Shown in pieces: positions 43,882 through 64,000 of a stretch of DNA of 64,000 bases. The stretch covers positions 92,994 through 156,993 of the IMG/VR virus record IMGVR_UViG_3300030438_000078; one strand, 5' to 3'. Below the pieces are notes generated by a model. The model worked only from the letters and a program-made list of their open reading frames with translations, did not search any database and was not told the origin of the DNA. Origin of the DNA: a virus. How positions within the stretch are numbered: position 1 is the first letter of the stretch; the number at the start of each line of letters is the position of its first letter. The translations under genes and the position numbers were made by a program.

Positions 43882-43900
43882 CAATTAAAACATTAATAAT

Positions 43901-44524: not shown

Positions 44525-44803
44525 ATGATAGACTTTAAGAAAACAATAATTAATTTACATGAAAAATTTCCAGAATATGATTTAGACACATTAATAAAAA
44601 TTATAGATGCTATTGTAGAAACAACAGATTACAGTAAATTTAACTATCCTTCTGGAGTTAGACAACCTTGGATAGATACCTCAAAAGTAACTTGTACTCC
44701 AGAATCTAATATATCTTATACCAAAAATACTTCAGATAAATGGATTGATATTATCAGTAGTGGGGTTCAAATCAGAAATCCACACGATACTATTATATAT
44801 TAA
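44525..44803 (+). CDS. hypothetical protein
   Basis: 92-aa ORF; followed by a terminator hairpin. Confidence 0.45.
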   Translation: MIDFKKTIINLHEKFPEYDLDTLIKIIDAIVETTDYSKFNYPSGVRQPWIDTSKVTCTPESNISYTKNTSDKWIDIISSGVQIRNPHDTIIY

Positions 44804-44807
44804 AAAG

Positions 44808-44848
44808 AAATACCCAGCCCAGCTTAATTGCTAGGTTGGGTATTTTTA
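44808..44848. terminator. bidirectional intrinsic terminator between convergent genes
   Basis: AAATACCCAGCC-(14 nt loop)-GGTTGGGTATTT followed by TTTTT on the plus strand and A/T-rich on the other; sits between plus gene ending 44803 and minus gene ending 44911. Confidence 0.45.
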
Positions 44849-46464: not shown

Positions 46465-46669
46465 ATGTATTTATCTTTATATATTTAAGCCAACTAAATG
46501 GTTTTCTATTATCTAAGTATTCTAAGTTATCGTCATTGTTATGTGCTTCTTCTTCTAAGGAAATTTCATGATAACAATTCTTTTGTTTATCTTTAATTCT
46601 GAATAATCTAATTAATAAATACTCTAATCCATACCATATATAAAATCCAATAAATAAAGTTTCTATCAT
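46457..46669 (-). CDS. small membrane protein
   Basis: 70 aa; N-terminal TM 'LFIGFYIWYGLEYLLIRLF'; ends TAA; overlaps next gene start by 8 nt. Confidence 0.4.
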   Translation of the reverse strand: MIETLFIGFYIWYGLEYLLIRLFRIKDKQKNCYHEISLEEEAHNNDDNLEYLDNRKPFSWLKYIKINTYE

Positions 46670-46794
46670 CTATTTAGTATGAATCTTTTCATGATTTATA
46701 TCTATATTTGATAAACTATCTTTAGTAAATAAGATTCCAAATAGATTTATTGCTTTGTATCCTTTAAATGGAATAAATTTATTTTTAATTATTA

Positions 46795-46986
46795 TCATAT
46801 TATATAATACCAATCAGTACGTTCTCTTACTCCTTTATCTTTTAACTATTGAGAATTTAGATGATAATCACCGTTTCTAAAATTCAACTCTTTATCTACA
46901 TAATTCCAGTAAAAATATCCATGCCATCCTGGAAGAAGCAAAGTCTTTCCAGTTACAGCATATAAAGTAGCTTGATTATAATTCAT
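46795..46986 (-). CDS. small aromatic-rich protein with one in-frame TAG
   Basis: ATG at 46986 overlaps the TGA of the holin-like gene (ATGA); TAG at 46846-46848; ends TGA 46795. Confidence 0.35.
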
Positions 46987-47258
46987 AGTATAATTATTAA
47001 TATACCTAATATTATTCCAATTAAATCTGCTATTATATCTTTCCAATCCCATCCAGTACCATTTGATCTGAATTTATCATATAATTCTTTTGATATAGAA
47101 GCAACTATTGCTAATGCTACTCCTACTTTCAAATTAAAAACTCCTACTATTAATACAATAGCAAAATTAATTATCACATGTTTTAATTTATCATTTCCTT
47201 TTATAAGAGAAATAATATTATTTATCCAATTTTTTATTGTTTCCATCCTTATTACCAA
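46983..47258 (-). CDS. holin-like membrane protein
   Basis: 91 aa with two or three TM helices ('FAIVLIVGVFNLKVGVALAIVASI', 'IIADLIGIILGILIIIL') and charged loop; located in a lysis-like cassette. Confidence 0.45.
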   Translation of the reverse strand: MVIRMETIKNWINNIISLIKGNDKLKHVIINFAIVLIVGVFNLKVGVALAIVASISKELYDKFRSNGTGWDWKDIIADLIGIILGILIIIL

Positions 47259-47469
47259 ATTTCCAAATTCCTGTTACACTATCTATACCTAATAGTCCCA
47301 TGCAACACCATAGAACTGTATCTATCATTAATGGAGCTTGTATAACTTCAACTGTACAATATACCAATACTAAAAGACATATTATCCAACCAGTTAATCC
47401 GCAAACTCTCTTAGAAGATACTCCTGATTGAGAAATTACTACTTCCTTCAAAAATTGTATAAATCTCAT
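47218..47469 (-). CDS. membrane protein (holin/spanin-like)
   Basis: 83 aa, two TM helices, basic C-terminus; ATG overlaps TGA of upstream gene (ATGA). Confidence 0.4.
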   Translation of the reverse strand: MRFIQFLKEVVISQSGVSSKRVCGLTGWIICLLVLVYCTVEVIQAPLMIDTVLWCCMGLLGIDSVTGIWKFGNKDGNNKKLDK

Positions 47470-48485
47470 CTCTTAAAATATTGATTTATAACATCAGAGT
47501 AATTATCCACCTACTAAAAAGCATCATTTAATCCTCCGTTAATATATATATTATACATATCCTATATGGATTTAGAACTATTTAATCTACTTTTAAATTT
47601 ATTAGGCATTTTGTAGTAAGCATATAACATTCTATCTTCTGAACCTGGATTATTCTTAAAGAAAGCATGAACTGAATTTCCATACTTTTCTATTAATAGT
47701 TTTTTAGCATCGTTCAATTTCATATTAATAATCTCAGCTGCATCATTCAAAGATAAATTATCTTTTCCCCATACTTTCATTTTATTATCAAACGGTTTTT
47801 TATAAGTTAATCCAGTAATATTTAATCTTTGTTTGACGTCGTCTAAATTATCCAATCCAAAGTTTCCTAGTTTTTTATAAGATGTATTTCCAGGATTTTT
47901 AGTGGGATTTCGGGCAATTACAACACTATCTGGATCGACTGTTAATTTAGAATTAAGCATATTAGTAGCATAGCCTTCGTTTAACAGTACATTTAATAAT
48001 CCCCTCTTATGGGCAACATTAGAGAGTACTCCATTTAACTATTTTCTGTTTTTATCTAAAAATGAATATTTCCAATTTTTATCTATACCATTTTTATCTG
48101 TACCCCATTTAGTATTTACAATTACTTTATAATTAGGAGAGGTAACTTCTCCACCATCTTCATGTTTTTTAATTAAACCATAAGTTCCTTTCTTTAATCT
48201 TTTAATTGTAATCCATCCATTATCTAATATTGACCTATGTCCATCTGGCTTATGAATCTTCGAACCTTCCTCATGTTTCCATTTAGCAGCATTTCTAGCA
48301 AAGTTAGCCCTCTTCTTTTGTAATGGAGTAGTCTTAGGATTTTTTAATACAGCTCTTGCATGCTCCTATACACTTCTTCCTGCCTTTTTAGCAGAAGCTG
48401 TAAACTTTCCTCTGTTCTTCTTTTTAATATGAATACCAGAACCTTTCTTATATATCTAGCATCCAATAAATTCTAAATTGTTCAT
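47466..48485 (-). CDS. TAG-recoded basic protein (340 codons), candidate lysis/virion protein
   Basis: ATG 48485 to TGA 47466 with in-frame TAGs at 48456, 48366, 48039, 47562, 47514 and 47511; extends ORF-track piece 47562..47960 in both directions; very K/R-rich N-terminal third. Confidence 0.45.
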
Positions 48486-48867: not shown

Positions 48868-49782
48868 ATGGATAAAAGTAAAATTACAAAACAGAATGGC
48901 AACATTGCTTTTGAAGAAGAAGCTCACATTTATTATGATGTTACTTGCCCAGAAAAGAAATTTGTATCTGTGACTACGTTAATTCATTCTTTCACACAAC
49001 CCTTTGATAAAGAGTTCTGGTCAGCTTATAAAACATTAGAGAAACTTCTATCTAAGGATGAATGGTCTATAGAAAAAAAGTCTTTATTAAATACTAAGAA
49101 ATTTGATAAGGTCTTACTAGAACTTCATAATATTGATGTGAATGATTTTAATAGAGAGCAGCAATCTATCTTAGATGCATGGGATTTAGAGAATAGAAAC
49201 TCTTGCGAAAGAGGAACTAAAATACATGCAGAATTAGAAAACTCTTTTTATAAAAAGAAGAAGAATATAGATTTAAGCAAATACCAAATTGGTGGAAAGT
49301 TTGAATGTGTTAAGGATTATAATGAGTTAGACTTAGAAAATGGGGTATATCCTGAATATCTTATATCTAGAGTATCTGATGATGGAAAATTGAGAATAGC
49401 CGGTCAAATTGACTTATTAGTTAAAAAAGGAAATAAAATAATTATAGGAGACTGGAAAACTAATAAGAAAATTGAATTAAAATCATTTTTTGATTCTAAG
49501 ACTAAGTGTTCTACAAAAATGAAATATCCTTTAAATAATTTAGATGACTGTAATTATAATCACTATTGTTTACAATTAAGTACATATGCTTGGATGATTC
49601 AAAAATTAAATCCAGAATTTGAGATTGAAGATTTAGTATTAGTACATTTTGACCATAGTGACAATATGACAGTGTATCATTTACCATATTTAAAAGATGA
49701 AGTAATCAGAATGTTAGCTTATTATAAAAAAGAGTCTATTCTTTCTGAAAATAGAAACAAACGTAAACGTATAGAATATTAA
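48868..49782 (+). CDS. putative PD-(D/E)XK-family nuclease (RecB/Cas4-like exonuclease fold)
   Basis: 304 aa; 'GQIDLLVKKGNKIIIGDWKTNKK' matches D..(E/D)xK core; no TAG codons. Confidence 0.45.
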   Translation: MDKSKITKQNGNIAFEEEAHIYYDVTCPEKKFVSVTTLIHSFTQPFDKEFWSAYKTLEKLLSKDEWSIEKKSLLNTKKFDKVLLELHNIDVNDFNREQQSILDAWDLENRNSCERGTKIHAELENSFYKKKKNIDLSKYQIGGKFECVKDYNELDLENGVYPEYLISRVSDDGKLRIAGQIDLLVKKGNKIIIGDWKTNKKIELKSFFDSKTKCSTKMKYPLNNLDDCNYNHYCLQLSTYAWMIQKLNPEFEIEDLVLVHFDHSDNMTVYHLPYLKDEVIRMLAYYKKESILSENRNKRKRIEY

Positions 49783-49784
49783 TT

Positions 49785-50000
49785 ATGTCAACAGAAGAAA
49801 TAAATAAAAGAAGAGACATATGTAATCATTGTGGAATATATGATTCTAATAATGATTTATGCAATGGGCATTTATATATTAATCCAGATAATAATGATGT
49901 AAGTATAAATCCTAAAATTGGATATATAAAAGGATGTGGATGTTTATTAAGTAGAAAGATTCCTAATGAATTGAAACATTGTCCTGCAAAAAAATGGTAA
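49785..50000 (+). CDS. small zinc-ribbon protein
   Basis: 71 aa, 'CNHCG...CNG...CGC...C'. Confidence 0.35.
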   Translation: MSTEEINKRRDICNHCGIYDSNNDLCNGHLYINPDNNDVSINPKIGYIKGCGCLLSRKIPNELKHCPAKKW

Positions 50001-50335
50001 TGGACAAATTATTATATGGAACTCCAGCAGTAGCTAATCCTAATAAAATTTATATATTAACAGATGCCGATTATGTTAAAGTAGAAAATAAAGAAAAGAT
50101 GATAAAAAAATGGATCAAAGCAATATTTATTAAACCTTTTACTATTTTAAAAAGTATATGGTTTAATTTAACAAAAAAACAGGAAGATCTCTCAGAAAAG
50201 AGATTAGAAATATGTAATAACTGTGATAAGAAGATTAACATTAAATATGTAGGAGATATATGTGATATTTGCGGATGCGTATTAGATAATAAAACAAGGA
50301 TTAAAGATGAACATTGTGATTTATGTAAATGGTAA
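49979..50335 (+). CDS. hypothetical protein with C-terminal Cys cluster
   Basis: 118 aa; 'CNNCDKK...CDICGC...CDLCKW'. Confidence 0.35.
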   Translation: MSCKKMVMDKLLYGTPAVANPNKIYILTDADYVKVENKEKMIKKWIKAIFIKPFTILKSIWFNLTKKQEDLSEKRLEICNNCDKKINIKYVGDICDICGCVLDNKTRIKDEHCDLCKW

Positions 50336-50341
50336 TGAATT

Positions 50342-50938
50342 ATGGAAGAATTAAGAACAGAATTAAACAGTAATGAAAAGTTAGCATTAGCTACAACAGG
50401 AATGGAAGGAACAGGAAAACATTTTATTATTAATGGTGAAACTGCTGATAAAACTCTACAAAGAGAAAAGGCAATGACTTTTAATACTAAAGTTGATGAA
50501 TTTAATGATAAATTTGAAAGGCATAATAAAGCATTAGAAGATTTTGCTAAAGATTTATCTGAAGATATAAATGGTCTAGAAATCATGCCTATGTTTGGAT
50601 ATGCTTTGATTAAACCTTTTGACCAGAATCCTTTCCAGAAAGTTAAAGTTACTAATAGTGGTATTATTACAGATTTAGGTGGATATACTCCTACTTATAA
50701 ATCTCATGAAACTGGAGAAATTGAAGAAGAACAACAATATATTAAAGTCGGAACAGTTATTGAAGTTGGACATAAATGTGAATTCTTAAAACCTGGTGAT
50801 GTAGTATTCTACACTATTGCTAGTGAATGTATGGTTCCATTTTATAAACTTGGTTTTGTAGTAGTTAATGAAAACAGAATTCTAGCTGTTGTAAATGAGA
50901 AATTAACAGATAGAAAAAAGAATATTAATAAGGGTTAA
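50342..50938 (+). CDS. GroES-like co-chaperonin with N-terminal extension
   Basis: C-terminal ~100 aa ('MPMFGYALIKPFDQ...VKVTNSGIIT...EIEEEQQYIKVGTVIEVG...LKPGDVVFY...RILAVVNE') has the Hsp10 pattern: mobile loop, roof hairpin, conserved hydrophobic tail. Confidence 0.45.
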   Translation: MEELRTELNSNEKLALATTGMEGTGKHFIINGETADKTLQREKAMTFNTKVDEFNDKFERHNKALEDFAKDLSEDINGLEIMPMFGYALIKPFDQNPFQKVKVTNSGIITDLGGYTPTYKSHETGEIEEEQQYIKVGTVIEVGHKCEFLKPGDVVFYTIASECMVPFYKLGFVVVNENRILAVVNEKLTDRKKNINKG

Positions 50939-50939
50939 T

Positions 50940-51164
50940 ATGGAAGAAGAGAAGATTTATTTCCGACCTGGGGATTGTGTTACCTTAAAATAGCATAAGG
51001 TAATGCATTCTCCAGTTATGCTTGTTTTAAGAAAAGAAGCTGCTTTATTTAAAGATAATTAGAGTCTTAAAGGACTAAGATGTAGATGGTTTACTGATTC
51101 TGGGCTAATGCAGGAAGCGGTATTTAATACAAAAGATTTACAATTAGTAACAAGTAATTTTTAA
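50940..51164 (+). CDS. small protein with DUF2158-like 'PGD.V.LK' motif; three in-frame TAGs
   Basis: First plus-strand gene containing TAG codons; 'IYFRPGDCVTLKQHKVMHSPVMLVLRK...LRCRWF' resembles YodC/DUF2158 small proteins. Confidence 0.4.
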
Positions 51165-51168
51165 TAAA

Positions 51169-52461
51169 ATGGCATTAAATTTAGACCCAGAATTTGTACA
51201 TTATGTTTAGGGTATTTATGGAAACGCTGATTTAGATGGTAAAGTAATTAAATAGTTATATTAGACATGGAAGAGTAATCCTTAGTTTATTATAAATGCT
51301 TATAATTAGAAAAATCAAGTTCAGCAAAATAAACCTTAGCTAGCTTCAATGGCTAATAATAATATTAGATAGATTAATAAGCCAGAAGTAGCACAGGATG
51401 ATTTAAGTGGAATTACTAATTTTGGAAACGCATTTAAAATAGCTAGTTAGAGAAATTTAAGTTAGTTTAAATGGAAGGGAACTAAAGCTAATCCTAGTGG
51501 ATTATTTGCAGTTGAATTTGCAACAAAAAAATAGTCTACATCTAAGCCTACTAAGCCTACTAAACCTTCTCCTACTTCAAATAATTCTAACTAGTCAAGT
51601 CCTTCTTCTACTCAAACATGGTCAAGTTTACTTGAAAAAGCTCCGACTCTTGATTTAATAGAATCAGTAAAAGGAAAATCATTTTGGGATGGAACCTTTT
51701 TTCCAGTAGATAAATCTTTAGTTAAAAAGGCTCCTTCTCCTGTAACTAATAGTTCCTCTACTTTGAAACAAGATGTTCCAAGTAGTCCATTGCCAAGAAA
51801 TAGAGAAGCCGAATCATAGGCAAGACAATCAGCTTTTGAAAGAATGACATACTAGAATTGGAGAAGTAATAGACCCTCTGAAAATAGTTATTTTAGAGCA
51901 GGTTATAATTCTATAACTCCATCTTTTTATTAGTAGGGAGGTACTATGTAGCAACAATAGTCTTCTCAAGAATAGGAATTACAAAAAGCTTTCTTAGCAT
52001 ATTTAATTTAGGATGCAGCATAGCAAGGTATTCAATTACAATCAGAACAAGATTTACAAGCATATGCTTAGCAACTTGGAGAAGAAGGTATAAAAGCTAA
52101 GTATCAAGAATTTATGCAGAAAATGCAAGGAGGAACAATGGCTAAACTTGGGACAAAGTTAGAATATATTAAAAAACTAAAAGGAGTATGTCCAGAAGGC
52201 TATGAAATGTCCTATTACAAGGTAGGAGGAAGAATCTGCAAAACTTGTTAGAAAATGCATAAAATGGAAGCTGCATAGAAAGGGAAGAAACTAAATGCAG
52301 TTCAATAGTTTAAGAAAGATATGAAAACTAAAGATGAAGCATCTAGAGATTCTATAGCTATCAATAAATGGCAGGATTAGGATACAATGGCTAAGAAAGG
52401 AAATAAAGGAAACTTTAAAAAAGGAACATGGGTTCCAGATAGAAAGAAATATAAAAAATGA
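51169..52461 (+). CDS. Gln(TAG)-rich hypothetical protein (431 codons)
   Basis: Continuous protein-like frame with more than 25 in-frame TAGs, ends TGA; Ser/Pro/Thr-rich linker and C-terminal Cys motif 'CPEGYEMSYYKVGGRICKTC'. Confidence 0.5.
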
Positions 52462-52494
52462 GATTTAATTATCTTATATAAATGGGTATGATTT

Positions 52495-53055
52495 ATGAAT
52501 GTGTTTAGTTTTAATTCATTAAATAAAAGTTTAGAAATTAATGAACCTGAAATATTATTGGTAAGAGAGTTTAAAGCTTTAGTGGATAGGGATTTTACTT
52601 CTATGAAAGAAAAAGTTACTAGAGAACTCACTTATATCTTTCTAGCAATAGATTGGAAAAGTCCCTATAACCAATATTCTGAATAGGAAAGACATGAAGA
52701 AGCTTTAAATGATTCTGGATTAACAGAATCTGAATTTAATGATCCTATATTTAGAGAAGCATGTAGAAAATATAGGGCTTTATAGGATTCTAATAAATCA
52801 ATTAAGTTATTAGAAGCTGCTAAAAGAGCAGCTGATTAGTTTATAGATTATTTCGATACCATAGTAGACTTAAATGAAAGGGATAATAATGGAAAGCCTG
52901 TTTTCTAGGCAGAAAAAGTAATGAAAGAAATGGCTTAGTTACATAAGGTACATGAAGAATTAATTACCCTAGAAAATGAAGTTAAGAAGGAGCTTACTGA
53001 ACAGTCTACTATTAGAGGTGGTGGAGAAGACGGTTTTGATCCAGGAGATATTTAA
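52495..53055 (+). CDS. hypothetical protein upstream of terminase (candidate small terminase subunit)
   Basis: 187 codons, 5 in-frame TAGs, ends TAA three nt before the terL ATG. Confidence 0.45.
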
Positions 53056-53057
53056 TT

Positions 53058-55208
53058 ATGGGAAGAAAGAAAAAAATACTACCTGAAGAATTATAGATTA
53101 TAGTAGATGAAGTAAGAAATAAATAGGAATAGGAAGATGCTCAAGAAGCTAGAGAACTAGTATAGAAGTTAAGACAGGAAAGGTCTAATGATAAAACATA
53201 TTGGGATGTAAAAAAAGAAGAAACAATAGAAGTATTTGACCCAACATTATCTTATGAGTTAACTGGATATAGACCTATAGATGAAACTCATGGATTAGAC
53301 TTTAATCCAGAATGGTTCACAGAAACTAGGGAGGTTTATAAGAAAACTGGAAAATATTGTCCGTATCTAAAAGATAGTAAGAGATATAATGAATTTTGGA
53401 AAGAGCAATATAGAAGATGTAAATACGGAATGACAGTTAATGGTTACACTATTACTGGAGATAATTACTTCTTTTTGAATTTCTATTAGTTACCGGCTAT
53501 TGATACTAACTAGGCTTCTGGTTCTGGAACTAGAGATGATTTTCCAATATTTTTCGCATCTCATTATATGTTCTTCCATTATTTACAAATGGCAAGAGTA
53601 CTTCATAAGCATGCAGCTTTGATGAAAGCTCGCTCGATAGGTTTTAGTGAAATAAATGCTTCATTATCAGCAAGAATGTATTCTGTGATTAGAAAAAGTA
53701 GAGTGATGATTACTTGTTATAATGATACCTTCTTAAAGGGCACATTTAATAAGTTTGATCATGCTTTAACTTTTTTAAATACATGCACTAATGGAGGATT
53801 CTTTAAAAGAAGAATTACAGATTAGGATCTAAAAAAGAAATCTGGAACTTAGATAAAAATAGATGGACAGTTTGAAGATACTGGATTTCAATCAGAAGTA
53901 CTAGGAATTAATGGAGCTAAACCATCTAATATTCGTGGTGACCGTGTTGATTTATTAATATTTGATGAAGCAGGTTCTTGGCCAGGTTTAACTACTGCAG
54001 TTGTACAAGGACAAGAATTATGTGAAGTATAGGGTGTTCCTAGAGGTACTATGTTATTTGGTGGAACTGGGGGCGATATGGGGGCACCTTTGGAAGGTCT
54101 TAAAAAGATATATTATAATCCTAGGTCATTTAAAATACTTCCATTTAGACATAATTGGACACAAGATGGTACTACTATAGAAAGCGGATTCTTTATACCT
54201 TACTTTTTACAATCTCTTAATCCAGAATTTATGGATAATAGAGGAGTTTGTAAAATTGGAGAATATAAAAAATTCTTACAAGAAGAACGCGACAATCTAT
54301 TAGCTGTTCCAGAAGAATATTTAAAGAAATGTGCTGAACGTTGCTGGAATGCAGAAGAAGCATTTAATCTTGAAGGCGTTAATAAATTTAATAAAATAAA
54401 CATAGCTAATTAGTTAGCTACTATAAGACTTCATAAACAAGGTCCAAGACCTGAAGTAGGAGTAATAGATTACTATTATAAAAATAGCCAACATACTCCA
54501 GAAAATATAGCAGGTTTTAAATGGATGCCTAATCCTAATGGTAAAGTAAAAATATTAGAACACCCAGTATGGTCAGATTTATATAAAGAATAGATAGAGA
54601 AATTAAGAAAGAAAGCCGAAGAAAATGATGAAGAATTTACTGTTCCTGTATATAAAGAAATGAAAGACTTGTATGTTGCAGGAATAGACGGTATTGATAT
54701 TGGTGCAAATTAGACTTCTAAAGAAACTAGAGATCCTTCAGATTTCTGCATTACTATTAAGAAGAGAGCTTTTGGACTTAATGATCCTCAATATGTAGCA
54801 ATATATAAAGATAGACCTGGAAATATTAGAGAAGCTTATAAAATTGCTATGTGCTTAGCTAGATATTTTAACTGTAAAATAAATATAGAAGCAACTCGTA
54901 TGAGTATGGTTACTTGGGCTAGAGAAAATAAATGTTTACAATACTTTATGAAACGTCCAAGAGCTACACTAACAGATATTAAAAATGGTACTACTAAGTA
55001 GTACGGAACTCCTGCAACTAAAACTATTATTGAACAGCATACAGATTTAACAGCTGACTTTGTTGAAGATTACTGCCATACTATATGGTTTGAAGAAATG
55101 CTTGATTAGCTTACTGGTTATAATGATGAAAATAAAGGTAAGTTCGATATTATAGCATCAATGGGTATCTTAGTTATGCCCCTATATATAGTAATATATA
55201 TAAGATAA
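53058..55208 (+). CDS. terL: terminase large subunit
   Basis: 717 codons with about 14 in-frame TAGs; ATPase Walker B 'RVDLLIFDEAGSWP' followed by a nuclease-domain region 'LYVAGIDGIDIGAN'; size and order (immediately before the portal-like gene) fit TerL. Confidence 0.7.
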
Positions 55209-55495
55209 TTCCGCAAAATCGGTGAAGACTAAGATGATTAAATTTATTGAAGAACATTAAATAGAAAATTTAATAAATTTAATCATTATGTTAATACCGA
55301 GGTAACTTAATTAATCGTTGAGTACCGTAACGCGTAGGAGATGAGCGTTATAGAGAGCAATAATTCTCCCAAGAGTGTGGAACATCCTATAGTGGATGAA
55401 AATGTACGCTGACCCGTCTGATGATTAAATCAGAATATAGTAAGGAGGAAACTCCCGGAATTATTGAATAAAAAATCAATAAGATAACAAAAGTG

Positions 55496-55714
55496 ATGAC
55501 AGAATTAGCAGATTAGGAATTGTCTGGAAGACAACCTTCTTTAGTTGTTAAAGATGTTGAAGAGTTTCAAGATTTTGGATATTATAGAGATGAAAGGGGT
55601 TATATAAGACATGGTGTAATACCTAAGAGAGAACCTCAACTAATTAATATAAATATAGAAAAATATGATGACCCATACAGAATTGAAACAAGCGATCCTA
55701 GATTATATACGTGA
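55496..55714 (+). CDS. hypothetical protein
   Basis: 73 codons, TAG at codon 7, ends TGA. Confidence 0.35.
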
Positions 55715-55967
55715 ATTATATGAAATGGAATATATAGGAGGTTTAGAAATAACTGACCTAGATCCAGTAGGTTATAAAATTTCTTTTAATTTTGATAAAT
55801 CTGAAATGCCTTTAGTTATTATAGCAGATTTACCAGATGAAGAATTTTTACCTTTTATAAAAGAAGAATTAAGAAGTAGAAAACTTCATAGAGTTAAATA
55901 TTTTGGAGCTACTAAACTTCCTCCAGAACCTATAACAGTTTGTAATGAAAGAAAAAGAACTTATTGA
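55665..55967 (+). CDS. hypothetical protein
   Basis: 100-aa ORF overlapping both neighbours. Confidence 0.35.
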   Translation: MMTHTELKQAILDYIRELYEMEYIGGLEITDLDPVGYKISFNFDKSEMPLVIIADLPDEEFLPFIKEELRSRKLHRVKYFGATKLPPEPITVCNERKRTY

Positions 55968-58128
55968 CAAAACTAATGCTGCTATTTCTGAGTTGGTATA
56001 TGACAAGTATGAGTTACAAAAAGCTTATAATTATTACAATGGTAAAAGAGACCCAGAATAGTATCGTTACTTAGAAGAAAATTTTGGAATAGGAAGTCCT
56101 ACATCAGTTGAGTTTACACCTCTATTAAAAAAGCATGTAGATGCTTTAGTTGGAGAATATTTAGGAACTCCTATACTTCCAAAAATTTCTTGTAAAGACT
56201 CTGAGACTATATCTAGTATTACTAGAGAAAAATAGTTAAAAATAATTGAAGGGATAGTTAAATTTTTAAAAGATCATTTAAATAATTCTATTCTCAGATT
56301 TATAGATGGAAAAGATATAACAGATAAAGCTATTAAAGAATAGCTAGACAAATTAATTCAAGACATTGACCAATCATTTATTTCTCAATATGAAATTGCT
56401 GCACAGCACGTTGTGTATTACATAATGCAATCTAGAGAAACAGATTTAATTACTAAACTAAGATAGTTATTAACAGATTTACTTATTACTGGATATACTT
56501 TCTTTAGAGTTAAACAATCTTTAAGTGAAAATAATATTGAAATAGAAGTACTAAATCCATTAAATACTTTTATAGATAGAAATCCAGATTCTCCATATGT
56601 TAGAAATTCTTATAGAGCGGTTATTAGACAATGGTTAACTAAGAGTTAGATATTGGCTAAGTATGGCAAGGAACTATCTAAAGAAGATTTAAAACAATTA
56701 AAAGATGATTGGTATGATAGTGACGGTGCTGCTGTTTATAGAAGAGAGTTCACAGCTTCTAATACATGTACAGTAGTAAATGATGATTGGAATAATGACA
56801 CAATACCTGGTTATCCAGATAATGAATATAGTACAAAACGATTCTAGCTTATCCCGGTGTATGAAGTAGAATGGATTGAAACAGATGATAACTTTATAAT
56901 GTAGAGATATACTACTATAAGAATAGGAGAAAATATTTATATACTTAGAGGTCTAGATAAAAATGTTATTAGGTCAAAAGATAATCCTAGCTTCTGTGGA
57001 CTTTCAGTAAATGGAGTATATTTTTTAAATAGATCTAAATAGCCTTATTCTCTAATATTAAAATGTGCTCATTTGTAGGATAGATATGACTTATTAAACT
57101 ATTATAGAGACTCTTTAGTAGCTAATAGTGGTTCTGCTGGTGTTATTATGGATATGTCCCTATTGCCTAAGAACTTAGGAGTAAAATGGCCTGAAAGAGT
57201 AGAAAAATGGTTAGCATATAAGAAAGCAGGTATAATGTGGGTAGATAGTTCTCAAGAGGGCAGAAATGATAATGGTAATGCTCCATTAAATACTATCTTT
57301 AACGGATTTGATGATACTTTAAAAGCTCAAGCTATTCAAGCAATAGAGTTAGCAATCTAGGGAGTAGAACAAACTACCTCTTCAATTACTGGAGTATTTA
57401 GAGAACGTCTTAATGGTATAGAACAAAGAGATGCCGTAACTAATATTAAATAGGGAGTAGCTAACTCGTATATTGTTACTAAACCATATTTCCAACAAAT
57501 GGATTTAATAACCTGTGAAATCTTACTAGATAGTTTAAATCAAGCTAAAATAACTTATAAGAAAAAAGGTTTAACTGGAACTATTATTTTGGGAGATAAA
57601 TATTAGTAGATATTTACTGCACTTCCAGAGCATTTTACTTTAACTGATTATGATATTCATGTAATTTCTAGTACACAAGTAATGGAAGATATGTAGACTA
57701 TAAAATCTATAATTCCAGAATTTGTAAAAAGTAATTAGATATCTCCAGATATTATATTAGAAGCTCTAACTTCTAAAAGTATGACTGATTTAAAATATAA
57801 AGTTAAAAAAGCTATGTAGGCTCAGAAAGAAGAGAATAATTAGTTATAGCAGCTATAGCAAAAACTAGAAGAAACTACATAGCAAGCTCAATAGTTATAG
57901 TAGGAATTATAGAAAGCATAGTAGAAGATACAGTAGCTTGATGAAACCAAACTTAACTTAGAATAGCATAAGATTCAGCTAGAATATTAGGTTAATTGGT
58001 TTAAAGCTCAAACTGATAGGTCTTATAGAGATAGATAGATGGATATAGAAGAAAAAAGAACTGAAGTAGAATTAGCTCAGTTAAAAGATGGGAATCCATA
58101 TAATGATAAAATTAGACAATTAATCTAA
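55945..58128 (+). CDS. portal-like protein (728 codons) with TAG-encoded Gln-rich C-terminal tail
   Basis: Large gene directly after terL; dozens of in-frame TAGs; C-terminal 40 codons contain about 13 TAGs ('QAQKEENNQLQQLQQKLEETTQQAQQLQQELQKAQQKIQQL'); portal assignment rests on size and synteny only. Confidence 0.5.
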
Positions 58129-58865
58129 TGGCAGTAATAGGAACAAAATTATATAATAAAGAATATCAACAAATATATCCAGAATCAGATGCTTCAGTAA
58201 TTATTTGTAATGGTTCTGGAAATAAATCTTATGTAGAAGAGGATATTAAAAAGATATATAAATAGATATCTGATCTTACTGGGGCCACTGAAACTATAAA
58301 TAATATTATAGTTAAAGTACATTATTTACCTTCTAATATTTCTAATGAATCTGATATTAAATTATCTGAGAAATAGTGGTCAGATACATTTGAATTACCT
58401 AGTGAGGAGAATCCCTATGTTTGGAAAAGAACTTTATTTACATATGAAGGAGCAGAAGATGGATAGGGAACTACTATATATGAAATAGTTGCTACAGACA
58501 CTTCAACTATTATTTAGACAATCTATACTAGAACAGAAGGGATTACACCAGTAATAGAATATAAACAAAAAGTAGATGAAAAAGGAAATCCTTTATATAT
58601 AGACTCAGATGGAAGAGAAACTACTGAAGTAACTTCTACTAAAGCTTATGATTATAATTATTACTGGGATGGTTCAAAGGCTAATGGTATAAATAATCTT
58701 CCTCCTACTCCACCAGAATAGACTTATACTTGGACAGATTACCCTCAAGATATTAGTCTATCTTTTACATCTGTATTTATGTCTAGAAGAATTAGATAGG
58801 GAGGAAAGTGGGGACCCTTATCTACACCAGCACAATATGGTCAGTGGCCAGTAGGTACTAATTAA
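58128..58865 (+). CDS. hypothetical structural protein
   Basis: 246 codons, 8 TAGs, ATG overlaps portal TAA (TAATG). Confidence 0.45.
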
Positions 58866-58876
58866 ATTATATAATT

Positions 58877-59605
58877 ATGGAATTTAGTGTTGATATACAT
58901 ACTCAAATAAATGGAGAAATAACTATAGAAGATTTCTCTAAAGAATACATGCAGTATATAGATGAAGATGTTGAGGTAGTTACTACTTTTGATTTGTTTA
59001 AATATAGTGAAAGTGCTACATTAAATAGTGTAATCAAATTAGGATTATGCGATGCAGTATTAATAGATGTATTAATTAATAATCATTCTGAAGATTTAGA
59101 TTCATGTACTTTTAAAGTTACAGATGATGGTTATTATGTAATAGACCATATTGTACTACCTAATATGAAATGGTATGAAAACGCTTCTGAAGAATATAAA
59201 AACTACTATGAAACTATCTATGTAACTGATGGAGAAAAGTTATATAAAGAAGTCGAAGAAGAATTAGTAGAATGTACAGTAAAAGAAATATTAGAAAGAA
59301 ATACAGAAGGGACTACTATAAAAAAATGTAAGATAGATGTTATTTTTACAGGCAATATGTAGCAATGTTATATAAACTATTGTAAGAAGATTTTTAATAA
59401 CCTTCTTAATCAATGCTACAAAAAAGAAAATGACTATGATATATATGCCAGAGATTTTATATGGATGACATTAAATATAATAGATTATTTAGTTGGTTTT
59501 AAACAGTTCATGGAAGCTTAGAGAATTATAGAAATGTTCCAATCTTGCGGAGGTTTCTGTAAAAAAGTTACTGAACATAGACAAGTTAGCTGTGGATGCT
59601 CTTAA
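58877..59605 (+). CDS. hypothetical protein
   Basis: 243 codons (ORF-track 58877..59362 extended through two TAGs to TAA 59603-59605); C-terminal part overlaps a second protein-like frame. Confidence 0.4.
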
Positions 59606-59760
59606 AAGAAAAGCAATAATTACTTATAAAAACCTTCTATCTAAAGTAAAGAAAGGTTATAGACCAGATTATAAGGATTTACTAAATTTAATTTGTTTTA
59701 TAAGTCTCCCAGAAAAAATAGATAATTATGATTTTATAAAACAACAACTATTAAATTAGA

Positions 59761-61329
59761 ATGATACAGTCTATCTACACTTCGGTAAATAACGCCGAAT
59801 TAGTTTCGTGTGGTAAAAAAGGTACTCCTATAAAAAGTGAACCAATTCCATTACTAAGAAATAACTTTTTAAGTGAGTATAGAACTGAATTAGAAAAAGC
59901 TAAGGTAAGAAAAAATTTAGGAATTGCTGATGAAGCTAGTTTAATTTGGGGAAATATAGACGGAACTATAGAAGAATAGAAAGATTTAGTTCAATATATA
60001 GAATAGAAATGGGCATATACTTCTGATGTTTCTGAAGATATCTAGACAGTAAAAGATGCTTTAGATTATGCTCTATTTTTTATTGGATAGTATGAAGCTA
60101 ATACAGAAGAAATAGAAGAACTAAATCAAAAAATAGAACAACTTAAATAGTTAATATCACAAACAGAATAGTCTCTTCAAGAAGATATAAACACTAATAC
60201 TGAGAGTATTAATACTATTAATCAAAATATTGAAGAGATAAATAAATAGATAGAAGATATTAATAGTAATATAGAAAATATAGATGTAGATAAAAATATA
60301 TTAAACTGGGTAAAAAATAGTTTAGAAAATTCTAAAACTATAAAATTAGTAGATGATACCACTTTAGAAGTTATTCTGTTAGAATAGGAGGACAATGCTA
60401 TTAAACTTTTGCAATAGCAAGAACTTTCTGAAGGGATGGAACCTTCTGAACATCCCACTGTTCCTGGTTTATATGTTAAAGATTTAGAACCTTTAGTTAC
60501 TAATAATTCATAGAATATAAAAGATATTAGTACTAAAGTAAATTAGAATACTTAGAATATTACCAATATTTAGGAAAATATATCCAGCTTATCTGTATAT
60601 GAAACTGAATTGCCCAATGAAACAGAATCTTCTGTTTTGTAGGGAACTACAGTGGAATAGTTAAAAGGTAAGAATATTAATGAAATTATAGATACACTAT
60701 TATTCCCAACAGTAGTTAGGGATTTAGTTTAGCCTTAGCTATATTATAGTGTTACTCAGAATATTGTAGAAGTAGGTTCCCCTAATATTAATCCAACATT
60801 AGTATTTGTTAAAAATGATGCTGGTAATGAATCTTCTCGAAAAGAAACTATATCTTATAATGAAGAAGAACTAGAGTCATTAGAAACATATTCTTCTATA
60901 GGAGACTATATTTATAAAGGAGTTGTAGAATATGAAGCTGGAGAATACTTAATAGATAATAAAGGTGAGGTTACAAAAATAAGAATTGAAGCAGGTTCTA
61001 TAGAAACATCTACTAAGGTAACAGCAACATATCCTTGGTATGCAGGGAATACTAGTTAGGTACAAAAATAGGCTTTAGTTCCATTTAATTAGCAGACTTA
61101 GGTAATTGAGATTTCTTTAACGGATCAAGCAGTTATTAAACTTCCAGGAAGTAAAACTCAATTAAGTATGTTTAAAGTAAATGGAGGCCTAGGATTCTTA
61201 GATGTAGACTTAACTGGATGGGATATATCTACAGAAAATATTTCTGGATTTACTTATAAAGTTTGGACTAAAAAAGATTCTTATTCAGCAATATTACCAC
61301 ATCAACTTAAATTTACACTTATACAATAA
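59761..61329 (+). CDS. structural protein with coiled-coil/Asn-Ile-rich region (tail-fibre-like)
   Basis: 523 codons, about 25 TAGs, ends TAA overlapping next ATG. Confidence 0.5.
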
Positions 61330-62621
61330 TGGGTTTTACATATACAGGTGATGCTGTGTTAGGAGTGTCTTTATCAGTAGAGACTCCTAAACCTCTGGAT
61401 AGTAGAAGTGTAGTAAATAGTATTCAAGATTTATATACTATTCCAGAGAAATATGCATATGAAGGTATGACCGTTGCAAATAAATCTAATGGAAATCTTT
61501 ATATGCTAGTAGATAAAGCTAATATAGGAGATAAAACAGGATGGAAAGCTTCCTATGAAGCCATACAAATTATTGCTTGTACTGAAGACGAATATAAGGA
61601 ATGGAAAGATAATACAAGTGAAGACTTCTAGCCTATAAATCCAGAGAAATCCTTTCTTCATGAAGATACCTATTATTATATTTATGAAGATAGTCTATCT
61701 GCTGAAACAGAAGATTAGGAATATTTATCAGCAGCTTGGGGTAAACAAATAGAAGAATAGTTAAAAGCTAAAGCATTAAATACTACTGTAGTTGCTTTAC
61801 AATAGAAGGTAGATGCTGATATAAAAAATCTTTCTGATAATTATACTACTACTTAGTAGTTATAGGAATAGTATTATAATAGAACAGAAATAAATGAAAA
61901 GTTTTTAACTAAAGAAGATGCTAATAATACTTATGCCACTAAGGAATCCTTAACTGAATTATCAGATTAGATAGCAGAAGAATATGTAACTAAAGAGGAT
62001 TTAAGAGGAGACTCTCCAGAAACTGGTGACGATGATTTTATTTTCGTAACATAGAAAAAATATTAGGAAGATAAAGATGCCCAAGCATTAAATTTTGAAA
62101 CTTAGAATTTAACTACAAAAGATACTAAAACTTCTTCCATAATTATTTAGAAAATCGAAGAAAAAGAAATATCTTAGGAAGAAGGAGAACCTATTATATA
62201 GGAAGAAGTAGTTAGCTAGAATGTAATAACTTCTGAAAATAATAAAGTTCTAATAGATAATAAATAGGTAGCTCTAAGCGAAGAAGTACCTAAGATAGTT
62301 TGTTTACCATAGAATGAATATGATGATATGGTGGAACAAGGAGAAACAGAAGATGATACTTATTATTATACATATGATAAAGAATAGGGAATAGATACTG
62401 GTTATGTTACTCCAGAATATCTAAATTAGAGTTATTATACTAAATATTAGGTAGATTAGCTTATTAAATAGGCTATTGCCGAAGTAACATCTAAAATATT
62501 TCCATTAGATATAGATTCCGAGATTTCTCAAGTATAGGAAGAAGTACTAAATATAGATTTAAAAGCTGTAAGTATAGAAGGAGAATTGTTAAAGTTTAAT
62601 TATGGGAGTGATTTACGTTAA
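61329..62621 (+). CDS. acidic hypothetical structural protein
   Basis: 431 codons, more than 25 TAGs. Confidence 0.5.
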
Positions 62622-62793
62622 TGGTGGATTTAAAAAAGCGAAATTACCAGTTGATTTAAAAGATTCCTCTGTAAATATTGGAGGAAATCAAGGATTAGAT
62701 ATTTCTGTGGAAGATGATGGGATTTTAGTAATTACTTCACAAAATATAGAACTAGATAAGGTAGTAGAAAATGAAATTTTAAATATTATATAA
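62602..62793 (+). CDS. hypothetical small protein
   Basis: 63-aa ORF overlapping the previous gene's 3' end. Confidence 0.3.
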   Translation: MGVIYVNGGFKKAKLPVDLKDSSVNIGGNQGLDISVEDDGILVITSQNIELDKVVENEILNII

Positions 62794-62794
62794 A

Positions 62795-63691
62795 ATGGCA
62801 GCAATTAAGCAAATAAAAGTAGGTGATGTAACTTATGATATAAAAGCTAAGTAGGATATAGATGGAAATGATATAGCTACTACTTATGTTAAAAAAGACG
62901 GAGTAAAAGTTTTAAGTACAGAAGACTTTACTACTAAATTAAAAAATAAACTAGATGGAATTGCTGAAGGTGCAAATAATTATACACATCCTTCTAATTC
63001 TGGTAATAAGCATATTCCAACTGGGGGAAGTAAGGGGAAAATATTAGTCTGGAAAGCAGATGGAGAAGCTTAGTGGGGAGACGATAAAGATACCACTCCA
63101 GCTAAAGTAACTACAGACGCAGATGGCTTAATGAGTAAAGAAGATAAAGCTAAATTAGACGGTGTTGCCGCAAACGCTAATAACTATTCTCATCCTACTG
63201 GTAATGGAAATAATCACATTCCACAAGGCGGAGCTGAAGGCTAGTTTTTAGGATATTCTGCAGCAGGAACTGCAAAATGGGTAAATGCTCCTACTTTTTC
63301 TATAAGTACTGCTACTGATACAAAATTAGGCGGAATAAAAATAGGCTATACTTAGAGTAGTAAAAATTATCCTATTGTATTAGATAGTGGTGGTAAAGCT
63401 TATGTAACTGTTCCTTGGACTGATACAGTTTATACACACCCAAATACTGCTGGTAACAAGCATATTCCAACAGGAGGTAGCCCTGGATAGATATTAGCAT
63501 TTGCTTCTGATGGAACAGCAAAATGGTAGAATACTTATTCAGCAGCCACTGATTCTACTTTGGGAGTAGTTAAACAAGGAACAGCTGTAAAAGATGCAAC
63601 TTCTGGAGTAAGTGCAACATCAGAAAATGTAGCAACTTAGTTAAATGCTCTTTTAGCTTCTTTAAGAACAGCAGGAATTATAGCATCATAA
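62795..63691 (+). CDS. tail-fibre-like protein with three 'N-Y-(T/S)-HP-x3-GN-x-HIP-x-GG' repeats
   Basis: 299 codons with 8 TAGs; repeats 'NYTHPSNSGNKHIPTGGSKGKILVWKADGEAQW', 'NYSHPTGNGNNHIPQGGAEGQFLGYSAAGTAKW', 'THPNTAGNKHIPTGGSPGQILAFASDGTAKW'. Confidence 0.5.
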
Positions 63692-63924
63692 TATGATATA
63701 TAGAAATGGTAAATTAATCTTACAGGTTCAAAAAAATGTTTAGGAACTTGTGGAACAAGTATAGCAACGGGTTCAGAAAGATATAGGAGCTATATATAAA
63801 GGAACTTAGTTAGTATGGTTGACCGTGTACGACGCTATCAGAAGTTGTTTTGGTAGCGGTACATGGTTACCTGATAGACCTTGGTTAAAAGATGATTTAT
63901 GGAAAAATAATTAATTTGAAACAA

Positions 63925-64000
63925 TGGCAAAATTTGAAAATTTACCAAACAAGATTGAAAATTTAGAAACAGAATGGGACCAACATTCTGGTATGGAAGT
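63925..64000 (+). CDS. 5' end of a gene continuing beyond the window
   Basis: ATG at 63925, open frame to window end. Confidence 0.3.

Follow-up and report, generated by a model that had tools for sequence, protein, structure and literature searches.

The 64-kb stretch of viral DNA analysed here (the window) very probably comes from a crAss-like phage of about 185-190 kb which uses two genetic codes in one genome, TAG in the late genes being read as glutamine by means of the phage's own tRNA(CUA). The phage most likely belongs to the Zeta group. Late-gene use of code 15 is already documented for crAss-like phages, the Zeta group included (PMC7886860, PMC12386605, PMC9523058), and reassignment of late TAG to Gln goes together there with suppressor tRNAs (PMC7886860; PMC12386605). 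The labels early and late are assigned here from gene function and strand, and the features discussed are collected in Table 1.

The genes called on the plus strand from position 50940 onward comprise 4002 codons, in which TAG occurs in frame 140 times and TAA and TGA not at all; in the two other frames of the same codons, TAA occurs 183 and 285 times and TGA 26 and 178 times. Under the standard code, the longest plus-strand ORF in 50940-64000 is 166 aa and none reaches 200 aa, whereas reading TAG as sense gives a maximum of 730 aa and a total of 3648 aa in ORFs of at least 200 aa. Plus-strand ORF lengths in this region did not improve when TGA or TAA was the codon read as sense. When the sequence was dinucleotide-shuffled 300 times and TAG again taken as sense, the longest ORF per shuffle averaged 100 aa, and none was above 177 aa. 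It is confirmed that the pattern of in-frame TAGs at these coordinates is far beyond chance. All nine ORFs obtained on this strand with only TAA and TGA as stops terminate at TAA or TGA. The first-pass annotation of this DNA had described late frames broken by TAG alone and finishing at TAA or TGA, a region shattered when TAG is taken as a stop, and about 14 TAGs in 53058-55208. These descriptions hold, and the last count is exactly 14.

Table 1. Features of the window. ORF entries give the plus-strand reading frames from 50940 onward when only TAA and TGA are treated as stops; TAG counts are in-frame.
Feature	Position	Strand	Details
Early/replication block	96-42954	-	Standard-code compatible; Pfam matches
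Homing-endonuclease gene	14578-15294	-	6 TAG; PHROG 559 HNH endonuclease, E 2e-34
Glucosaminidase	21083-21586		TAG-free
tRNA-Gln(UUG)	30326-30398		
Decayed tRNA-like gene	41424-41493	-	29 nt after RAGATH-14
RAGATH-14 RNA	41522-41726	-	Rfam RF03145, 143.9 bits, E 1.5e-26; gathering score 149.1
Small unit with suppressor tRNA	43252-44841	+	Gene calls, terminator scan
Gene in unit	43252-43659	+	1 TAG
Amber-suppressor tRNA gene, anticodon CUA	43808-43882	+	ARAGORN; Rfam tRNA model, E 8e-9
Genes in unit	43901-44221, 44199-44381, 44525-44803	+	
Terminator-like hairpin closing unit	44817-44841	+	Terminator scan
Minus-strand block with in-frame TAGs	44911-48485	-	
Gene, 517 aa	44911-46464	-	9 TAG
HExxH protease-like gene	46457-46798	-	1 TAG; PHROG 15610 'protease', E 2e-38
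Two small membrane proteins	inside 44911-48485	-	No TAG
Gene, 339 aa	47466-48485	-	6 TAG
Four boundary genes ahead of recoded block	48868-50938	+	TAG-free
Recoded gene	50940-51164	+	2 TAG
Recoded gene, 430 aa	51169-52461	+	25 TAG; ORF 51151-52461, 25 TAG
Recoded gene, 186 aa	52495-53055	+	5 TAG; ORF 52492-53055, 5 TAG
TerL exon 1	53058-55166	+	14 TAG; PHROG 6681 terminase large subunit, E 6e-61; ORF 53040-55208, 14 TAG
TerL intron	55167-55495	+	329 nt, no ORF
TerL exon 2	55496-55714	+	1 TAG
Portal, 727 aa	55945-58128	+	30 TAG; PHROG 6547 portal, E 6e-44; ORF 55936-58128, 30 TAG
Recoded virion gene	58128-58865	+	6 TAG; ORF 58110-58865, 7 TAG
Recoded virion gene	58877-59605	+	2 TAG; ORF 58862-59605, 2 TAG
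Recoded virion gene	59761-61329	+	21 TAG; ORF 59755-61329, 21 TAG
Recoded virion gene	61329-62621	+	24 TAG; ORF 61311-62621, 24 TAG
Head-fibre-like gene	62795-63691	+	7 TAG; Pfam Phage_head_fibr, E 1e-10; ORF 62783-63691, 7 TAG
Recoded virion gene	63693-63914	+	3 TAG

The four genes immediately ahead of the recoded plus-strand block encode a PD-(D/E)XK exonuclease, two small zinc-ribbon-like proteins and a GroES-like protein (PHROG: exonuclease, GroES), and they lack TAG, as had been noticed on first reading. In 48 relatives these genes have TAG at 0 of 14,584, 0 of 3,359, 7 of 4,709 and 2 of 9,389 aligned codons, and the TAG boundary at 50940 is conserved in these relatives. Just beyond it, the TAG positions of the gene at 50940 align in relatives with TAG (46), CAA (28) and CAG (6). 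The earlier proposal that recoding is restricted to one class of genes is borne out by its conservation across the clade, but the restriction to the plus strand is not, since minus-strand genes also carry TAGs. The single TAG of the protease-like gene is TAG in 22 of 22 aligned relatives, and those of the 339-aa gene align, in order of falling frequency, to CCA, CAG, CAA and CCT. The homing-endonuclease gene, which also matches intron-encoded nuclease families, carries its six TAGs within an early block that is otherwise TAG-free around it.

The suppressor tRNA forms a standard cloverleaf with a U1.G72 first pair, a UGGGGUA acceptor strand, GG in the D loop, a TTCGA T loop and A73 as discriminator; CCA is not encoded. 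Its site is syntenic in those relatives that also have one, lying between homologues of the genes that start at 43252 and 43901. The gene directly upstream of it holds a TAG (and its homologues in 43 relatives about 2.7 per copy), and therefore it may be that the tRNA is not made early. In the 64-kb window we found no gene for a release factor, an aminoacyl-tRNA synthetase or an amidotransferase; in lacking release factor 2 and synthetase genes it differs from some alternatively coded gut phages.

The late TAGs are most likely read by this tRNA. On the mechanism that we propose, the early minus-strand replication genes could be translated by host ribosomes on entry of the DNA, because they have no internal TAG, while each late protein would halt within a few dozen codons until suppression begins. 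Once made and charged with glutamine, presumably by a host enzyme, the tRNA(CUA) would outcompete release factor 1 at UAG, and full-length TerL, portal and other late proteins would then be produced. The host itself would probably use the standard code, and the arrangement may act as a translational timer for the late genes. A code switch serving as a lytic timer has been modelled by Borges et al. (bioRxiv 10.1101/2021.08.26.457843). Compared with that model, no clear lysis cassette could be identified within the 64-kb window, and the glucosaminidase, which is its sole recognisable cell-wall hydrolase, contains no TAG.

TAG is used heavily in the late genes: 134 codons, against 108 CAA and CAG taken together, so that it makes up 55% of glutamine codons and outnumbers CAA alone (88). 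Both this and the sharp gene-level boundary kept in 48 relatives, which points beyond drift, weigh against another view of what the system is for, which we consider possible but rather unlikely. This is that the suppressor tRNA mainly harms the host or blunts its defences through read-through of host UAG codons, the late TAGs being a tolerated, mostly neutral and non-regulatory by-product of AT-biased mutation in genes that are expressed when the tRNA is already there. An anti-defence role has been put forward by Yutin et al. (PMC7886860), and some Zeta phages have a CUA tRNA without recoding (PMC12386605). It would also agree with the ordinary behaviour of the sense TAGs, whose 3' context has no special pattern relative to that of CAA/CAG (p = 0.30), and with the second suppressor in relatives, which is UUA in nine without matching TAA recoding in TerL. 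Host damage would account for the purpose of the system and not for the meaning of TAG, and it can hold together with the mechanism proposed above.

The early block encodes a DnaG-type primase, an AAA ATPase, a DnaB helicase, an SNF2 helicase and RNase H, together with nine or more tRNAs including a tRNA-Gln(UUG). It has 8 TAGs in 9739 codons, with none inside the replication genes, and across 62 relatives the early replication genes hold 0-2 TAGs per >10,000 aligned codons. The clade as a whole keeps the same division between genes without TAG and genes rich in it. Such an early/late contrast, set beside the TAG share of late glutamine codons, would not be expected of a codon that is ordinary throughout, and this makes it very unlikely that the host uses code 15, with no switch and with TAG as an uncommon sense codon which happens to be avoided by early genes. 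Phage and host are known to share an altered code in some cases (code 25; bioRxiv 10.1101/2021.08.26.457843), but the predicted hosts of crAss-like phages are Bacteroidota with the standard code (PMC7886860; bioRxiv 10.1101/2021.08.26.457843), and the phage has its own CUA tRNA. The use of TAG as a terminator is also against it: TAG is the first stop in 6 of 64 early genes (TAA in 44, TGA in 14), and in the primase it sits two codons past the TAA or TGA that ends the relatives' primase.

Codons found in relatives at the late-gene TAG positions of the window are TAG (1691), Gln (1243), Glu (527) and Lys (380). A position-weighted log-likelihood is best for Gln (-296), with Glu as runner-up (-399), so that Glu, Asn and Lys trail Gln by about 100 log units. 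The portal TAGs align with TAG 669 times, CAA 389 times and CAG 173 times, and one standard-code relative that has no in-frame TAG (L040) has CAA/CAG at 17 of the 30 portal positions. In the reciprocal test, at positions where relatives but not the window have TAG, 73 of the 323 window codons (23%) are Gln codons, compared with a 2.7% background. The aligned codons show that TAG exchanges with CAA and CAG across the relatives. These codons and the likelihood favour glutamine, which the first-pass annotation had named as the usual assignment, and support this reading of TAG in the late genes.

The tRNA does not single out Gln, its similarity to the phage's own tRNAs being 0.66 for Met, 0.65 for Val and 0.59 for Gln. 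In E. coli, supE is a tRNA-Gln with a CUA anticodon which inserts Gln at UAG against RF1; it is a weak suppressor of mutational origin, in a cell that keeps UAG as a stop. The phage tRNA(CUA), proposed likewise to insert Gln in competition with RF1, shares U at position 1, G2-C71 and G3-C70 with tRNA-Gln, but it has U.G in place of U-A as first pair and A in place of G as discriminator, and so it differs from the U1-A72/G73 of the E. coli GlnRS identity set. Here UAG is the majority Gln codon across a whole gene class, and its decoding must therefore be efficient.

Since the identity elements of the tRNA are indecisive, and Glu and Lys are the next commonest residues at TAG positions, a different amino acid might be considered (pyrrolysine, Glu, Lys, Tyr, Trp or Leu), but this is highly improbable. 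CAA and CAG are the top codons other than TAG at these positions, in addition to the lead of Gln in likelihood. The 'tRNA-Pyl' label from ARAGORN mirrors the anticodon only, and is printed for any CUA. Methanogens and some bacteria also read UAG with a CUA tRNA, as pyrrolysine, but this depends on pylTSBCD and on an atypical tRNA, unusual in its D-loop GG and T-loop features. The 64-kb window showed no pyl genes, the phage tRNA is an ordinary cloverleaf (54 bits against the general tRNA model), and TAG aligns with Gln and not with Lys-like residues.

The PHROG profiles for TerL and portal cover residues 90-707 of 716 and 23-694 of 727 respectively, and so span the TAGs; loss of homology after the first TAG, which the first-pass annotation had named as the sign of pseudogenes, is not found. 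The portal also matches the PhicrAss001 portal gp20 (PDB 7QOG, E 1.4e-12), and many of its TAGs fall in a Gln-rich C-terminal coiled coil. After the first TAG, dN/dS in TerL and portal is about 0.09-0.16. Of 50 related loci, 48, on phage contigs of about 185-190 kb, have a TerL gene with 11-30 in-frame TAGs but neither TAA nor TGA in frame, the other two (51% identity) having no in-frame TAG. It is concluded from the end-to-end family matches, the low dN/dS and the TAGs in relatives' TerL that the TAG-bearing frames are live genes under purifying selection. The lack of any standard-code ORF above 166 aa might suggest that a decaying element has left these frames as pseudogenes, or that they arose from errors of sequencing or assembly, but this is refuted by the stop-codon counts (one stop of three interrupts, 140 against 0), by the strong purifying selection past the first TAG, and by the aligned codons, 93 of the 140 TAGs being TAG in at least one relative assembled independently from other samples.

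TerL had been placed at 53058-55208 on first reading, but an intron follows 55166 and a second exon completes the gene, giving a spliced product that is 775 aa long and includes 15 TAGs. The last base is T in exon 1 and G in the intron, a group I-like arrangement, and the intron has no Rfam family match at E up to 1. Full-length homologues (76-90% identity) read through the site unbroken ('...SMG|MTELAD...'), and the closest relative, L113, has no intron there. The TAG of exon 2 aligns to Q in database translations and to TAG in the DNA of another relative (L001). This intron, the suppressor tRNA(CUA), the minus-strand TAG genes and TAG as an early-gene terminator were overlooked in the first-pass annotation, and our results support the view that its interpretation was incomplete rather than wrong.

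The relatives found here (183-193 kb) are close in size to published Zeta genomes (145-192 kb; Yutin et al. 2021, PMC7886860; Babkin et al. 2025, PMC12386605). Also alike are the presence of TAG inside TerL, portal and virion genes only, the CUA suppressor tRNA amid many other tRNAs, the introns, inteins and homing endonucleases, the replication block with primase, DnaB, SNF2 and AAA ATPase, and the relationship of TerL and portal to Crassvirales proteins. There is no difference in kind, although the GC content of the window (29.7%) is lower than the 31-36% tabulated for amber-suppressing Zeta genomes (PMC12386605). The GenBank phage collection that was searched contained no close relative, the best TerL match there having 47% identity. 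Lak, Agate, Jade, Sapphire, Garnet and similar phages likewise have early genes compatible with the standard code, recoded structural genes, a phage-encoded suppressor tRNA and TAG aligned with Gln. Code 15 has been proven by peptides in two other crAss-like phages (Peters et al. 2022, PMC9523058); the codon, the predicted amino acid and the broad phage assemblage are the same here, whereas our evidence consists of codon substitution patterns.

The RAGATH-14 RNA, which just misses the gathering score, and the decayed tRNA-like gene after it (41424-41726 together) are what is left of a second suppressor-tRNA locus, which relatives still have intact. A tRNA lies 28-32 nt downstream of RAGATH-14 in 30 of 31 copies, with the anticodon CUA in 17 and UUA in 9. 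Among the side observations, only this conserved pairing of RAGATH-14 and a second suppressor tRNA seems to be new.

The window is AT-rich, with a GC content of 29.7%. When positions 50940-64000 (+), which carry the late packaging and virion genes, are translated with the standard code, the longest ORF is 166 aa. If TAG is read as a sense codon, the same strand yields closely packed genes, the longest of 730 aa, and the ORFs of at least 200 aa add up to 3648 aa. Reading TGA or TAA as sense instead brings no gain in late-block ORFs, and in 300 dinucleotide shuffles with TAG as sense there was no ORF longer than 177 aa. The called late genes have 4002 codons, and in their coding frame there are 140 TAG and neither TAA nor TGA; the two off-frames contain 183 and 285 TAA, and 26 and 178 TGA. 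The first-pass annotation, made from the sequence alone, claimed TAG as a sense codon in this block, and the comparison of table 11 with a TAG-sense reading bears this out. Its coordinates are correct, and the 14 TAGs that it counted in 53058-55208 are exactly the number obtained on recounting.

Translated in this way, the TerL protein matches the PHROG terminase large subunit profile over residues 90-707 of 716, and the portal protein matches its PHROG profile over residues 23-694 of 727, with all TAGs spanned in both cases. The portal also matches the solved structure of the PhicrAss001 portal gp20 (7QOG), with an E value of 1.4e-12. A protein search found hundreds of full-length TerL homologues with 76-90% identity. 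For comparison, 50 IMG/VR loci were fetched around TerL homologues, mostly on contigs of 100-280 kb. In 48 of these TerL has 11-30 in-frame TAGs and no TAA or TGA; the other two, which are the most distant (51% identity), have a TerL without in-frame TAG. In both TerL and portal, dN/dS after the first TAG is approximately 0.09-0.16 (Nei-Gojobori, against three relatives). It had been pointed out that homology lost after the first TAG would indicate pseudogenes. Homology continues nearly to the end of both profiles, and together with the in-frame TAGs in 48 of 50 TerL loci and the dN/dS of about 0.1 this excludes a pseudogene reading. TAG is therefore in use as a sense codon in one class of genes, and these are under selection.

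The TerL gene is split. Its first exon ends at 55166 (...ASMG) and is followed by a 329-nt intron containing no ORF, after which a second exon (MTELAD...) supplies the last 72 residues, contiguous in homologues. Exon 1 has T as its last base and the intron has G, a pattern shared with group I introns, but a search of Rfam with the intron gave no family at E values up to 1. The closest relative, L113, lacks this intron. Database TerL variants of 709 aa stop at the intron point, and may have the same insertion. Two relatives' TerL proteins, P0008 (1131 aa) and P0013 (1069 aa), contain an intein with Hint and LAGLIDADG domains, and the TerL of the window has none. Given both introns and inteins within the clade, TerL is a hotspot for both. 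A LAGLIDADG endonuclease ORF is also found between two pieces of an SNF2-type helicase, at 6794-8038 and 9273-10136. It is absent from all 62 of the relatives compared, its first stop is TAG, and it probably represents an intron or homing element that was acquired recently. Annotation pipelines using table 11 fragment the whole packaging and virion module and miss TerL and portal; correct annotation needs table 15, and removal of the intron from TerL.

Database proteins have Q at the TAG positions. This was rejected as evidence for Gln because it is circular: the proteins had already been called with TAG as Q, and on a table 11 look-up the database gene does not translate to the query. Codons were therefore compared in the DNA. 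At the 15 TAG positions of TerL, the aligned codons of relatives are in the great majority TAG, CAA or CAG. Over all late genes, the codons opposite TAGs in the window are most often TAG (1691), then those for Gln (1243), Glu (527) and Lys (380), with a long tail of others. Position-normalised substitution profiles were made from the late-gene alignments, and 125 TAG positions were scored against them. The log-likelihood was -296 for Gln, compared with -399 (Glu), -402 (Asn) and -426 (Lys), and the Jensen-Shannon distance was smallest to Gln (0.074), the next best being at 0.31. The standard-code relative, L040, has CAA or CAG at 17 of 30 portal TAG positions. In the reciprocal test, 323 positions have TAG in relatives and a sense codon in the window; at 73 of them the window encodes Gln, against a background Gln frequency of 2.7%. 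TAG thus interchanges with CAA and CAG, and the assignment to Gln, previously suggested as the usual one in comparable phages, is supported at the DNA level both by the codon tables and by a likelihood lead of about 100 log units. Published proteomics of other crAss-like phages also found Gln at TAG (PMC9523058). TAG is the majority Gln codon of the late genes (134 TAG, or 55%, with 88 CAA and 20 CAG). The sense TAGs have no 3′ context bias favouring suppression (p = 0.30 against CAA and CAG).

The first-pass annotation did not include a tRNA with anticodon CUA, which is encoded between the early and late blocks. It folds into an ordinary cloverleaf whose D loop contains GG and whose T loop contains TTCGA, and so its ARAGORN label of 'Pyl' reflects the anticodon alone. 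The acceptor stem has U1, G2-C71 and G3-C70, with a first pair U1.G72 and discriminator A73. By the E. coli identity rules, U1, G2-C71 and G3-C70 are like tRNA-Gln, and U1.G72 and A73 are not. Identity to the other tRNAs of the phage is 0.54-0.66 throughout, its own tRNA-Gln is not the closest, and exact-pattern scans of IMG/VR did not find this tRNA body combined with a Gln anticodon. Since tRNA similarity does not give the isotype, the assignment to Gln rests on the codon data and the published proteomics (PMC9523058).

Relatives also have a CUA tRNA in this syntenic position, flanked by homologues of the genes starting at 43252 and 43901; the CUA tRNA is thus encoded at a conserved site. 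The gene directly upstream of it itself contains TAG, and the tRNA may therefore not belong to the early products. In L113, whose TerL is 90% identical, the CUA tRNA is at 3845-3919 of the locus, and the tRNA of the window differs from it in the acceptor, D and anticodon stems. The two tRNA bodies clearly differ, yet the upstream flanks are approximately 88% identical as far as the tRNA itself; this suggests that the tRNA cassette was replaced at a fixed site. The 3′ end of the L113 tRNA (CCTAGTAGGGCAA) is duplicated around an insert of approximately 78 nt. A scan for promoters at the tRNA and at the early/late boundary, using a sigma-70 model rather than one for Bacteroidota or phage RNAP, found fewer sites than in shuffled sequences. 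A Pfam search of 50 early-block ORFs (85-665 aa) found no release factor, GlnRS, amidotransferase or peptidyl-tRNA hydrolase; approximately 125 kb of the genome lies beyond the window.

Features of the window discussed in the text (strand and evidence as available)
Feature	Coordinates	Strand	Evidence or remark
Replication module (early block)	96-42954	-	Pfam matches, tRNA scans
TAG first stops of six early genes	1584-1586, 8193-8195, 11238-11240, 14208-14210, 29211-29213, 35386-35388	-	
LAGLIDADG endonuclease ORF	8139-9050	-	
HNH-type homing endonuclease, 6 TAG	14578-15294	-	sits inside early block
Glucosaminidase (cell-wall hydrolase)	21083-21586	-	Pfam, E 5e-17
tRNA-like gene	41424-41493	-	
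RAGATH-14 RNA (Rfam RF03145)	41522-41726	-	143.9 bits, E 1.5e-26, just below gathering score
Plus-strand unit with suppressor tRNA	43252-44841	+	gene calls; terminator-like hairpin at end
tRNA, anticodon CUA	43808-43882	+	ARAGORN and Rfam tRNA model
Recoded gene, 9 TAG	44911-46464	-	in-frame TAG count
Recoded gene, 1 TAG	46457-46798	-	TAG kept in 22 relatives
Recoded gene, 6 TAG	47466-48485	-	in-frame TAG count
Four TAG-free genes	48868-50938	+	
First gene of late block	50940-51164	+	
TerL intron	55167-55495	+	
TerL exon 2	55496-55714	+	

The early block encodes a Toprim primase, an AAA_24 ATPase, a DnaB helicase, an SNF2-type helicase and RNase H, and holds most of the tRNAs of the window, including tRNA-Gln(UUG). 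The early genes contain 8 TAGs in 9739 codons, mostly at gene 3′ ends, and the replication genes have no internal TAG. A set of 62 related loci was collected around the primase, and in these each replication gene has 0-2 TAGs per more than 10,000 aligned codons. The first stop of the 64 early genes is TAA in 44, TGA in 14 and TAG in six, and the stop of the primase is a TAG located two codons past the TAA or TGA of relatives. TAG therefore still acts as a terminator in this class, and the early genes, some of which end at TAG, can be read with the standard code. The six TAG-ended genes have their next TAA or TGA 1-27 codons further on, and with the suppressor active their proteins would gain short C-terminal extensions.

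The four genes immediately before the late block encode a PD-(D/E)XK exonuclease, a GroES-like protein and two small proteins. They are free of TAG, as had been claimed, and are also TAG-free in 48 relatives; the directly adjacent gene, which starts at 50940, has TAG both in the window and in relatives. The proposed boundary at 50940 is therefore conserved across the clade. The further claim that recoding is confined to one class of genes stands as regards the split between classes, but not as regards its limitation to the plus-strand block, because several minus-strand genes carry TAG (see the table). One of these, the homing endonuclease gene, could be translated only with the suppressor active. 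Recoded lysis enzymes have been reported in other crAss-like phages. The minus-strand region 44911-48485 contains no recognisable lysin; its products include two small membrane proteins and a protease-like protein with an HExxH motif. The glucosaminidase lies in the TAG-free block.

The overall interpretation of the first-pass annotation is correct, and is strengthened by the amino acid assignment, the tRNA, the conservation across the clade and the evidence of selection. In the mechanism that we propose, the suppressor tRNA would be charged with Gln by a host enzyme and would then outcompete RF1, in a host that presumably uses the standard code. That early genes end at TAG is indirect support for such a host. 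Synthesis of late proteins would be delayed until enough suppressor tRNA had accumulated. The main rival concerns the purpose of the system rather than its mechanism: the chief role of the suppressor may be to harm translation or defence in the host, and the late TAGs would then be a tolerated side effect. The window is a clear case, with an internal control, of one codon having two meanings in one genome, in that TAG ends the primase and five other early genes, and makes up 55% of late Gln codons. Given these two meanings, and a boundary conserved in dozens of relatives, the clade is well suited to testing the hypothesis, as yet unproven, that a change of code sets the timing of late protein production.

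The affiliation of the phage was studied by a tblastn search of the GenBank phage collection with a relative's TerL, P0001, which is 90% identical to that of the window. There were 131 matches, and the best 25 were examined. The best of these are two unannotated gut contigs with 43-47% identity; otherwise the 25 comprise only crAss-like phages (uncultured crAss 'cr' genomes and Azobacteroides phage), which are 25-28% identical over approximately 80% of the protein. By organism name, the 131 matches are mostly phages of Bacteroides, Flavobacterium and Cellulophaga, or uncultured or crAssphage records. A megablast search of the late block against GenBank phages gave a sole match, of 284 nt at 76% identity. 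TerL and portal are both homologous to crAss-like proteins, and on this homology the phage can be classed as crAss-like.

Several features resemble those that Yutin et al. (PMC7886860) and Babkin et al. (PMC12386605) give for the Zeta group (proposed Echekviridae). The published size for this group is 145-192 kb; contigs with a TerL of 70-82% identity are 183-193 kb long, as are the apparently complete ones among the fetched loci, and judging from relatives the genome containing the window would be approximately 185-190 kb. Dense introns, inteins and homing endonucleases together with many tRNAs are typical of the group, and are also seen in the relatives or in the window, which has 10-13 tRNA or tRNA-like genes. 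Further likenesses are the replication block of Toprim_2 primase, AAA_24, DnaB_C and ResIII plus Helicase_C (Pfam, 1587-8038) and amber recoding accompanied by a CUA tRNA. The genes for the multisubunit RNAP and for MCP are outside the window. Membership of the Zeta group is well supported by these likenesses, though not proven. Several Zeta genomes of 155-189 kb are tabulated as 'CTA, amber' (Babkin et al., PMC12386605), and the reassignment of TAG to Gln or TGA to Trp has been described for 243 crAss-like phages, mostly in late genes and accompanied by suppressor tRNAs (Yutin et al., PMC7886860). A model for a switch from standard to alternative code has been presented by Borges et al. (bioRxiv 10.1101/2021.08.26.457843). 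Late-gene recoding, its Gln identity and the suppressor tRNA are already known for crAss-like phages, and because all three are published the finding leaves existing knowledge unchanged.

The sole item here that may be new is a pairing of the structured RNA RAGATH-14 with a tRNA at a second suppressor locus. In the window, RAGATH-14 lies 29 nt upstream of a tRNA-like gene that appears decayed, with a deletion affecting its D and anticodon arms. Copies in relatives score above the Rfam threshold, and across the clade 30 of 31 copies have a tRNA 28-32 nt downstream, with anticodon CUA in 17, UUA in nine and aberrant loops in four. The pair is also found, for example, at 1597-1890, 707-1010 and 1370-1651 of the relatives' loci L001, L005 and L113, respectively. 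The UUA tRNAs, which are ochre suppressors, occur at this locus in nine relatives (e.g. L005 707-777, L012 63-133, L013 1958-2028), and the TerL of these nine has no in-frame TAA. No description of RAGATH-14 was found in the literature searched. There is a small chance that the dyad is a second, RNA-level component of the code switch, in which RAGATH-14 would serve as a leader for processing or regulation and determine if, and at what time, the suppressor is released. If so, a change of genetic code would be under the control of a conserved RNA, a function could be given to RAGATH-14, and the window, which has kept RAGATH-14 with a decayed tRNA, would be a natural knock-out.

In L113 there is also a match to the Pistol self-cleaving ribozyme at 712-785 (-), with 64.8 bits (gathering score 34.5), approximately 600 nt downstream of the dyad; no Pistol match in the window reaches the gathering score. 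Three further candidate tRNAs in the window, at 34575-34644, 24457-24529 and 39615-39694 (-), were matched by Rfam (50.1, 36.5 and 30.8 bits) and not by ARAGORN. They have unusual anticodon arms, with a loop of 3-4 nt, 6 nt, or approximately 14 nt with a possible insert.
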